Assembly (NCBI RefSeq): GCF_964355755.1
Contig: NC_092676.1
Coordinates: 27,484,871 to 27,548,870, forward strand
Direction of reading: 5' to 3'
Source of the DNA: Antedon mediterranea
Taxonomy: Eukaryota > Animalia > Echinodermata
DNA: 64,000 nucleotides
This document shows, one piece after another, positions 21,701 to 24,700 of this stretch (the first letter of the stretch is position 1; each line of letters opens with the position of its first letter). A program made the position numbers and the translations under genes. Under the pieces are notes generated by a model. It was not told the DNA's origin. It did no database searches and worked only from the letters and a program-made list of their open reading frames with translations.

Positions 21701-24700
21701 CTGCAGTATGTCTATTGTTCATGTTTCAACATCATTAAACAAAAATATTTCTGAATCTGACCAAATCATAATGACACTCTGAATAATACATTCTGTGATT
21801 AATTAATCATTGACAAATTGCATGGCTGCAGTGTGTCTATTGTTCATGTTTCATAACTTTACTATTTATATTAATATCCAGTATTTATCTTCAATTCGTT
21901 TTAGATTTGACAGACCAAATTGGAACGGTTCAAGCCAACACTGACTATGTCCAAGAACAAATATCAGAATGCCAATGCAATATTATGGAGATGATGGAGA
22001 ACAGGGTAAGAGATACTAAAAATAAACATAGAAAATATTAACAAAGGTAAAACATGAGGCCTAGTCCAAATATAGATATGATGATGTGTAGAGCGAGTGT
22101 CAACGGATATTGTAGTCTTAAGAATTGTGTGATTAAAACATGATTCGAACCTTTGACCTCTCTTTAACTAAGCAAGCTTATAGATTATATAATTAACTTT
22201 TTAGGCTGTGTGTCTTGGGTTGAATTTAAGCTCTAGTGTAAGGCCTTGAAATATGCTGAGTGTAAATAATTTAGGCTTGGGAATCCTGTTCACTCACCTC
22301 TGCCTAGCATAATATATACATTCATGCGTTCACCTCCGCCTAGCATAATTACATTCATTATGTGAATATAAACATACTTACAATACAACAATACGCATGC
22401 TGCATAGTTAACATTAGTGAGTTTTTAAAACAGGCGACGCAGCAGTGTGCGAAACGCAACCGAGCATGCAATTTACAGTGCGCTTGCGGATACTAGAAAA
22501 CTTCTGTTGATCGTTGAACAGGCAACAGGATTTAACAAATTTGGCGATGCCTGGAGAAAGAGGCGACGCAATGCTGTTTCTGACTTCCGCAACTCGCTAA
22601 TCCGGCGTCGATATTTCAAAAGCTCCCTATACTATTAAAATCCATCAAACAGGATGAATACCAATGACATAAGTTTTCAATGATAACATACAGTTTTGAA
22701 TTGAGTTTTACTGCTTAGATATGAAGAGACAGTTTTAAATTATGATTTTGGGAACTTTTATCTTTATGTTCAATATCTATGTTCCTCGGTCCTACTCTTT
22801 TCTTCTCTGATTTTCTTTTATTGTTTTCGTAATTGTTGTACACATCTTTGTTACTTCTAAAGAGATGGAACAGCCAGTCTGGGATTTCCTCAATATGCTT
22901 GGCTTTTAGTTTAAACAATGGTTGAAATTTCTGTATTGGGCTAGAATGCCACATTGTTGGGGGAGCAATGTGATTTCAACGCGAGAAGGCCTAGTAGTCC
23001 GTAGAGCTTTTGAATAATTGTTTGCTTTAATGAGGGCTGTGATCTGGCTGTGGTTATAGTGCTTGGGACTTGCAACTACAAGGGTAAGTGTAAAATATTT
23101 ATTGTTAAGCTATAAAGTTGCCATAGATACAGCAAGGCATGTTTAAAAGATAGACTTAAGTAAAATTTAATCGTATTATCTAAAAATGATATAATAGGGA
23201 ATTCAATAGAACTCCTATTAAAGGGACACCCCTGGGACCTAACAAACTGTCCCTTTATTAAAAGTTTCCCTTTAATTGGGGTTGATTGTTCCTGTATATT
23301 TTCCCTTGTTTATTTCATGTGAAAGTGTCCCCTAAATAGGGTGTCCCTGTCTAATATACTGAATATAAATATTAAATAATAATAATAAAGGTTTGTTTTC
23401 TGCTTTTGGTATTTAATTATGACACTAAATTTTGATTTGATTGACAGAATAAACCCAAAACAAAAACAGAGACATCCGGCAATAAATCAGACAAGAAAAA
23501 GGTATCGTCGCTAAGAGCTAAGATTAACCAGATGCCTGTTTTACAATCCTTACCAGAGCAACCTGAACCATCTACAGATGATGATTATGAAGATATTGAT
23601 GATGAACTGGATTCTGACCTCTCTGACAGTAGTTCTTTCTCCAGTACCTGGTCAACTGCATCTCTTTCACGCACCAGTTCTGATCTTCACTTTTCTGACG
23701 ATGACTCCGTTAACTCCGGTCTTGATGATAGCTTCCGTAGACGTAGACTGAGCGTCAGTTCAAACTACTCCATCAGCAATGATGTCTGGGAATCGTTCCG
23801 GTCAAGCATGTATGCAACAAATCGTGGTGAGATCACTAAAAGATCGCACGAAGCCGTGTCCACTTGGTGTCACTATTTGCCGTCCTCTGAGCATACTAAA
23901 TTTTTACGCCCAGTGCCTACGGACGAAAGAGTGAAAGACTTGATGCCGATAGAAATGATTGCTCTTGATCAGATGCTAACGTCCGCTCATGATTATTCCC
24001 TACGCGCATGTATACCCATCATGGATAGCATGACGTCATTGCGTTGTAGAGATTCGGAAGATGCATCAGATGTAAACACAGACAACATCGTTTCTGTCGG
24101 ACATTGTATCAACTCTCTTAAAGATGCTATGAAGCTGGTGATTGCCGCTTGCGATAAATTAACAAAAGCACGCCACCAACTTGTTCGTCCATATGAAAAC
24201 GACACCTTTGACCTTACCGAATCAGGATATGGTTTCCGTGCTGTATTTGAACCGTGTAGTTTTAACAGTCACGAAACACAGACGTATGTTAATAACAATT
24301 GGGAAGAAAGAGTAATGCAAAATAGCGATTCAACTAGTACACGAGGAATGAGGAAGAATCCGAGAAAAAGCCGGATTCCTATACGTATGACGCGTTTGAA
24401 TAAAGTAGCGATATCGACAAACCGCCGTGGAACGTTTGTTGTTACCGATAGAAAAGACTGGTTGAAAAATTTACCAACTATTTTGGGAAACAGTCAGGTT
24501 TTAGTTAATTAAGTTAAAAAATGATAAAGAAGTTTACAAATAAAAAATGTATTGTTGTTTCTTGATGTACCAACCAATTTTTATATAAATGGTCCCTTAT
24601 TTTGTTTCTATGTATTGTTTGTCAGAATGTTTTGAGGATATACAATGTATGATGATGGTAAAATTAGGCTTTATCAAATTACCTAACTAACATTTAAATT

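Follow-up and report, generated by a model that had tools for sequence, protein, structure and literature searches.

A conserved open frame in a KIF21 intron of a feather star, a candidate alternative last exon with probable DIRS ORF1 ancestry

We found that an intron of the kinesin gene KIF21 in the feather star Antedon mediterranea holds a real, conserved and unannotated coding exon, an open frame of 354 codons. Our tentative explanation is that this exon, likely a domesticated whole DIRS ORF1, serves as a minor alternative last exon of KIF21 with a predicted EB-binding SRIP tail. Even as a nested gene, the frame would represent an unannotated, conserved crinoid protein.

The open frame and its conservation

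The KIF21 exons in the window (the whole stretch of DNA analyzed, 64,000 nucleotides of contig NC_092676.1) encode the RefSeq protein P0011, named KIF21A of Antedon mediterranea, with an exact match for 1639 of its 1657 residues. The host domains are motor, stalk, autoinhibitory coiled coil (rCC) and WD40. The frame and the surrounding exons are the following:

21456-21615, + strand: KIF21 exon coding the first helix of the rCC, placed by the exon map and a match to the KIF21A rCC1 chain 5D3A, and spliced in run X1
21905-22005, + strand: KIF21 exon whose last residue is 995, where the rCC ends; 9.2-bit donor AGG/GTAAGA at 22006, in phase 0
23425-23447, + strand: predicted phase-0 splice acceptor at the frame opening, 7.1 bits, rank 5 of 183 intron AGs
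23448-24512, + strand: 354-codon open frame plus TAA in KIF21 intron 22006-25510, candidate alternative last exon, partially covered in X1
24539-24544, + strand: AATAAA, a putative polyadenylation signal with a GT-rich stretch after it
25511-25612, + strand: next canonical KIF21 exon, phase 0; the 662 residues from here on, WD40 domain included, would be absent from the short isoform if it is made

Across 2000 shuffled versions of the intron, open frames extended to at most 170 codons and none (0/2000) reached 354; we thus conclude that the uninterrupted sense ORF pointed out in an earlier note on this DNA is not a product of chance. The frame lies directly 3' of TTGACAG, and an in-frame TGA stands two codons upstream. 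The note had also matched this acceptor in phase to the donor at 22005, and the match was confirmed, both sites being phase 0. By a matrix built from 35 KIF21 acceptors, 20 of these genuine sites score no higher than the 7.1 bits of the frame's acceptor, and a comparable acceptor would occur at the frame opening by chance with a probability of ∼0.004 if the first 3 codon boundaries are considered and 0.02 if the first 15 are. The TAA, AATAAA and GT-rich element described in the note are likewise present, although AATAAA is weak evidence, since it would be found within 60 nt of the stop by chance with a probability of 0.09. A predicted in-phase acceptor, a stop and a candidate polyadenylation signal are all present at the frame, as for an alternative last exon of the TMPO/ZNF451 type. 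We rejected an internal cassette exon, since in-frame donors inside the frame score at most 4.5 bits and the conserved tail reaches the stop. An unbroken 4087-nt DNA contig spans the frame; in the DNA runs the bin 23918-24468 was at single-contig depth and 23367-23917 at ∼2-fold that level, a summed depth that does not equal copy number. An Rfam search gave 0 matches.

Among 5.8 billion proteins, the sole relative of the frame's translation (P0001, 354 amino acids) was P0002 from Anneissia japonica, another feather star, with 359 amino acids and 65% identity; P0002 was also the only relative in a search of 1.84 billion representative proteins. No relatives were found in metagenome contigs, and no Antedon protein record for the frame was found. 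P0002 (XP_033100037) is annotated as the product of the uncharacterized LOC117103567, modeled as a gene apart from KIF21 that starts at its own Met. Its contig measures 979,102 nt, the same as the contig carrying the seven Anneissia KIF21 isoforms (XP_033100029-035). From this contig match and the accession order we infer that P0002 sits at the Anneissia KIF21 locus. The orthologous position that the earlier note wished to see checked is thus probable at the level of the locus.

Identity between P0001 and P0002 was concentrated in blocks (12/14, 58/82, 71/88, 27/32, 7/10 and 37/41) separated by linkers and flanked by ends of far lower identity (2/14, 4/18, 2/14, 11/33 and 0/8); for comparison, the KIF21 motor is identical at 337 of 366 residues. 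This block-wise pattern argues for selection on a protein. Three regions are of particular relevance:

23490-23531, + strand: conserved block, residues 15-28, with 12/14 identical to P0002 versus 2/14 for residues 1-14
23778-24263, + strand: helical core (residues 111-272), weakly but collinearly similar to DIRS ORF1, with 71/88 and 27/32 identical in its helical blocks
24363-24485, + strand: conserved basic tail, residues 306-346, with 37/41 identical versus 11/33 in the preceding linker; SRIP at 24369-24380

The helices of the core were predicted at low confidence. The first Met of the frame is residue 29 (23532), downstream of the conserved residues 15-28. Taken together, the marks of a domesticated transposon were found, namely an intact frame, a probable orthologous place (at the level of the locus) and a block-wise identity indicative of purifying selection, and the domestication-like state and conservation suggested earlier were upheld by the 65% identical ortholog.

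Resemblance to DIRS ORF1

Reference sequences came from 119 metagenome loci pulled with the DIRS-type reverse transcriptase (RT) pattern. In the template loci, RT was found in 3 of 3 checked, with an RNase H-like match in one and an integrase match in one. The first ORF1 profile comprised 34 of 146 upstream ORFs, and two different seeds converged on the same 34; a trimmed profile held 25 ORFs, one per locus, each of at least 120 amino acids. In one locus (L021, 4143-4727 on the - strand, and flanks), ORF1 and RT form one 953-codon open frame, unlike other DIRS loci with overlapping frames. An RT pattern search of viral contigs gave 0 matches.

Both the region and the family had been named before the profile was applied. 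With the 34-ORF profile, P0001 scored 11.1 bits, over residues 149-251, and P0002 scored 11.7 bits. These scores exceeded those of 1500 shuffles of each of three types (0/1500 each), and the two crinoid proteins topped 431 decoys, the best unrelated one reaching 8.6 bits. Held-out ORF1s scored 17 to 54 bits; on thinned profiles P0001 scored 0 to 14 bits and P0002 -0.3 to 9.3 bits. With a second ORF1 profile, P0002 obtained 3.2 bits, a value that 3 and 8 of 1500 shuffles equaled or exceeded; one PDB chain scored 14 bits by chance with the ORF1 profile. Local hhalign comparison gave 27.9, against 23.1 for the best of 150 column shuffles and 18.1 for the best of 38 KIF21 ortholog windows; globally, over 140 columns, the score was 17.9, against 11.0 for column shuffles and 10.2 for KIF21 ortholog windows. 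The hhalign probability of a DIRS ORF1 match was 22 to 35%.

The overall layout also agrees. Seven full ORF1s measure 332 to 379 amino acids with a basic tail of 59 to 72, compared to 354 and 359 amino acids and a tail of 69 here, and the frame shows the same low-complexity N-terminal part, helical core (in a corresponding position) and basic tail within 330 to 380 amino acids. Equating VFE of the frame with the LFG motif of ORF1 is a post hoc reading. Judged from these profile and layout comparisons, the frame probably derives from a DIRS ORF1 (Gag). The DIRS ORF1 origin that the earlier note had read from the spacing of the core is thus supported by a match to the 34-ORF profile that no shuffle equaled, but the match is weak and unstable on thinned profiles.

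For the LAP2alpha domain, which the same note wished to see compared, Pfam and fold searches gave no match. The frame had no Pfam match, PF11560 (LAP2alpha) at its gathering score included, a PDB sequence search with its product gave 0 matches, and Foldseek found no match at E ≤ 0.001. The structure models, built from two sequences, had pLDDT values of 38 and 55, and Foldseek returned only generic helical bundles for them; rows naming FAT domains (E of 0.7 and worse) were rejected as generic four-helix matches. In the Atlas, the core lay near unnamed eukaryotic clusters (0.95), and rank 7 (0.91) was a cluster with LAP2alpha in 25% of its members; the Atlas named search with P0002 gave no usable match. 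Real ORF1 domains fare no better, 0 of 25 matching Pfam LAP2alpha, so these tools appear insensitive to the relationship; nor did a profile of real ORF1 domains find a LAP2alpha chain in PDB at E ≤ 10. Pairwise phmmer and a two-sequence profile against the 638 ORFs of the DIRS loci yielded nothing below E = 0.1.

As the note had stated, no remnant of RT, RNase H or recombinase lies near the frame: tblastn of the 638 DIRS-locus ORFs against the window gave a single match, at 7956-8117 (E = 0.001). No long terminal repeats of an active DIRS element were found, and blastn gave a single match in the window. A 16-nt inverted pair at 22294/25251 was rejected as element ends, being too short. The window is also strewn with a short, very abundant interspersed repeat with inverted ends, e.g., at 25295-25425, 21125-21280 and 25950-26100.

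Splicing to KIF21 or a nested gene

Run X1 was taken as RNA because it holds GT..AG-spliced contigs; it is a contig-level data set from which rare variants drop out. A KIF21 contig at depth 43 joins 22005 straight to 25511, and the main form of KIF21 therefore skips the frame. The junction 22005->23448 was absent from X1, a single run in which a rare variant could be lost at the contig level. Four unspliced contigs at depth 3 to 8, none reaching the acceptor, cover 726 of the 1065 bases of the frame. Cover is absent over 23448-23537 and sparse in the rest of the intron (172 of 2249 bases), and such gaps were given no weight. Since pieces of neighboring introns reach depth 4 to 11, this cover is no proof of a mature transcript. 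None of the 15 RefSeq KIF21 isoforms (8 Antedon, 7 Anneissia) contains the exon 23448-24512, and no longer fused protein was present among 2991 candidates, a weak test. Two shorter Antedon isoforms (1387 and 1395 amino acids) were rejected as fusions by size, as they end in a different, later exon.

Residues 15-28 are conserved although the first Met comes only after them, which calls for a coding exon upstream; within residues 1-28 a near-cognate start codon occurs once, as ATT at residue 26. The intron segment 22007-23440 contains four donors scoring above 6 bits, and none brings an in-frame ATG, whereas the KIF21 donor does; two weak donors in the intron (3.7 and 2.3 bits) also supply one. 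The KIF21 donor at 22005/22006 also cuts the protein at residue 995, just where its alignment with the KIF21A rCC1 chain 5D3A stops. Two features upstream of the frame have to be set against these:

22400-22640, no strand: CpG-rich stretch, possible promoter of a nested transcript (o/e 1.35 versus 0.60 for the window); an unspliced X1 contig at depth 2.2 covers 22387-22558
23030-23089, + strand: rival donor at 23084, 11.1 bits; its in-frame upstream ATG at 23030 is severed by TAG at 23057-23059

On balance we lean towards the frame being an alternative last exon of KIF21. The splice proposed in the earlier note gains from the conserved block before Met29, from the acceptor, from the KIF21 donor being the only strong one that provides a start and from the cut at the rCC end, but X1 shows only the 22005->25511 junction and the RefSeq isoforms lack the exon. 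The note had overlooked both the strong donor at 23084 and the conserved SRIP tail.

That the frame is a nested gene, which the note had named as its alternative, is a possibility of appreciable though less than even weight. In its specific form, which we consider unlikely, a separate same-strand gene from DIRS ORF1 would start in the CpG-rich stretch or near 23000, be spliced 23083->23448 or remain unspliced, and use Met29 or TTG 23063 to make a stand-alone SxIP protein of 330 to 360 residues. The Anneissia ortholog is indeed annotated in RefSeq as a separate gene, no fused isoform appears in the 15 RefSeq models, the KIF21 contig of X1 passes over the frame while unspliced contigs cover it, and the donor at 23084 and the CpG-rich stretch would suit such a gene. 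But conservation begins upstream of Met29, and the Anneissia Met may itself be internal to an exon whose acceptor lies farther upstream. The donor at 23084 comes without an in-frame ATG, and one as strong is expected by chance in 1440 nt with a probability of 0.12. A transcript from 22400 would moreover carry 16 upstream ATGs, and a nested gene has left no Antedon protein record.

We also rather doubt that this conserved crinoid exon or nested gene arose from something other than a DIRS element, its likeness to ORF1 being a generic resemblance of helical bundles. The low and profile-dependent ORF1 scores, the modest hhalign probability, the lack of a Pfam, PDB or fold match and an Atlas result that was not repeated with the ortholog are what this explanation would lead one to expect. 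However, the family and region were named beforehand, the collinear match over 140 columns beats all shuffles and the KIF21 coiled-coil controls, the layout is that of a whole ORF1, and the negative tools also miss true ORF1 domains. A recent or decaying functionless transposon fragment is highly improbable and largely refuted. Population changes in X1 would fit it in being mostly amino-acid changing (9 of 13), including one in the tail block. Yet no stop arises from any of the 13, residues 111-248 are unchanged over their covered part, and the sole insertion is of 3 bases; the frame is intact and block-wise conserved in two genera, lies in unbroken DNA and has no other element genes nearby.

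Several further elements were observed in this intron. A further acceptor of good quality (phase 0, 7.5 bits) stands at the start of the CpG-rich segment 22433-22640, and its use would end KIF21 after 20 codons; the segment also has 69 open codons in another frame, for which Pfam gave no match. The segment 23030-23083 is a Met-started hydrophobic stretch of 18 codons with one TAG, in frame with the candidate exon via the donor at 23084, and might be coincidental or the remains of a first exon; a 24-nt micro-exon at 23060-23083 is also conceivable.

The SxIP tail and the predicted isoform

The basic tail is the most conserved block of the frame (90%). SRIP is present in both crinoids, with 9 and 7 basic residues in the 24 around the motif and no acidic residue in Antedon. 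In controls, SxIP occurred at a frequency of ∼0.08 per 354 amino acids and S[KR]IP at 0 to 0.012, and canonical KIF21 has no SxIP, only S/TxLP. Functional SxIP motifs lie in a basic context, and by sequence the tail offers just that, a conserved S-x-I-P in a basic stretch outside a folded domain. P0001 and P0002 also share two RRxS/T sites; RRxS/T being a kinase consensus, one might guess that these sites could regulate the predicted isoform. According to two reports, S/T-x-I/L-P motifs bind EB proteins (PMC4365484, PMC3164455), and the SRIP tail is predicted to bind them at microtubule plus ends. The motif favors fusion only mildly, because it fits a microtubule role whether the frame is spliced to KIF21 or stands alone.

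Splicing 22005->23448 would give a protein of ∼1349 residues with motor, stalk and the whole autoinhibitory coil, in which the 662-residue distal part including WD40 would be traded for an acidic linker, a helical ORF1-like core and the basic SxIP tail. Work on KIF21 describes the rCC as a minimal autoinhibitory, autonomously folding domain (PMC4971492). KIF21B is held at the tip by its WD40 tail together with the rCC, and a WD40 fragment alone does not track growing ends (PMC5383399). Whereas tip retention in KIF21A and KIF21B goes through rCC and WD40 (PMC4971492, PMC5383399), the predicted isoform would lack WD40 and have an SxIP tail; EB-dependent retention would replace the WD40 lattice-binding route and produce an EB-targeted kinesin-4. 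Kif18B offers a parallel in that its tail has motifs of the SxIP/IP type through which EB1 recruits the motor to plus ends; that protein, however, is a kinesin-8 with the motifs in its ordinary tail (PMC3164455). In KIF21, a kinesin-4, the motif would come with a transposon-like exon. The isoform would likely be made only in a certain tissue or at a certain stage, and this would account for the absence of its junction.

The closest known cases are LAP2alpha of TMPO and ZNF451-L2a, two mammalian genes from which Abascal et al. (2015, PMC4495291) deduced that DIRS ORF1 colonizes hosts as an alternative last exon. They resemble what is proposed for the KIF21 frame: within a host intron lies one large exon, itself free of introns and provided with a polyadenylation signal, that is related to DIRS1-like ORF1, is under purifying selection and replaces the host C-terminal domains, with persistence of the original isoform. 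Both, however, are nuclear proteins of mammals, matched by Pfam LAP2alpha and backed by peptides (PMC4495291), whereas the frame lies in an echinoderm motor gene, has no PF11560 match, carries an SxIP tail and has a splice that is predicted only. Given the host gene and lineage, we infer that any capture by KIF21 was independent of these. Lyosin, which combines MYL4 with a LINE-1 ORF1 exon, is similar as a lineage-specific retrotransposon ORF1 exon in a cytoskeletal motor-related gene, but it involves LINE-1 rather than DIRS, an exon spliced upstream of host exon 3, a vertebrate, and a junction that was demonstrated (PMC12129022). As that junction was found only in testis (PMC12129022), Lyosin also sets a precedent for such junctions being missed in other samples.

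In its most far-reaching form, which we consider improbable as a whole, the proposal is that feather stars independently captured a whole DIRS Gag as the last exon of KIF21, cut exactly after the autoinhibitory coil and with an evolved EB-binding tail motif, so that a transposon exon switches the plus-end behavior of a kinesin-4; this would be the first capture of the LAP2alpha type found outside vertebrates. In the literature covered, which included few subscription papers, neither this exon nor the capture of a DIRS ORF1 by any invertebrate gene was described. If true, use of DIRS ORF1 as an alternative last exon would have a third, independent case in an echinoderm and be a recurrent, testable route. 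KIF21 would then also provide a natural kinesin-4 tail swap, with motor and autoinhibition kept and WD40 exchanged for SxIP, that bears on how kinesin-4 motors stay at microtubule tips.

KIF21 varies elsewhere in the window as well. After the WD40 region there are two alternative last coding exons (37022-37153 and 37993-38082), and both endings are present among the Anneissia isoforms, too. Optional exons with short SPTPR repeats lie at 32103-32172 and 32548-32800; two Antedon models stop there, without WD40, and one Anneissia isoform has the repeat segment internally. The 126-nt intron 25613-25738 is in frame and stop-free, and its retention would add 42 residues, and an X1 contig (17019-17341, depth 11) reads across the whole intron 17049-17314, reflecting a retained intron or precursor RNA. 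The neighboring genes, identified by Pfam, are a DEAD-box helicase at 40372-45013 (- strand), which we take to be DDX51, a Fic-domain gene with TPRs (FICD-like) at 55888-57683 (+ strand) and TAF8 at 59507-61751 (- strand).
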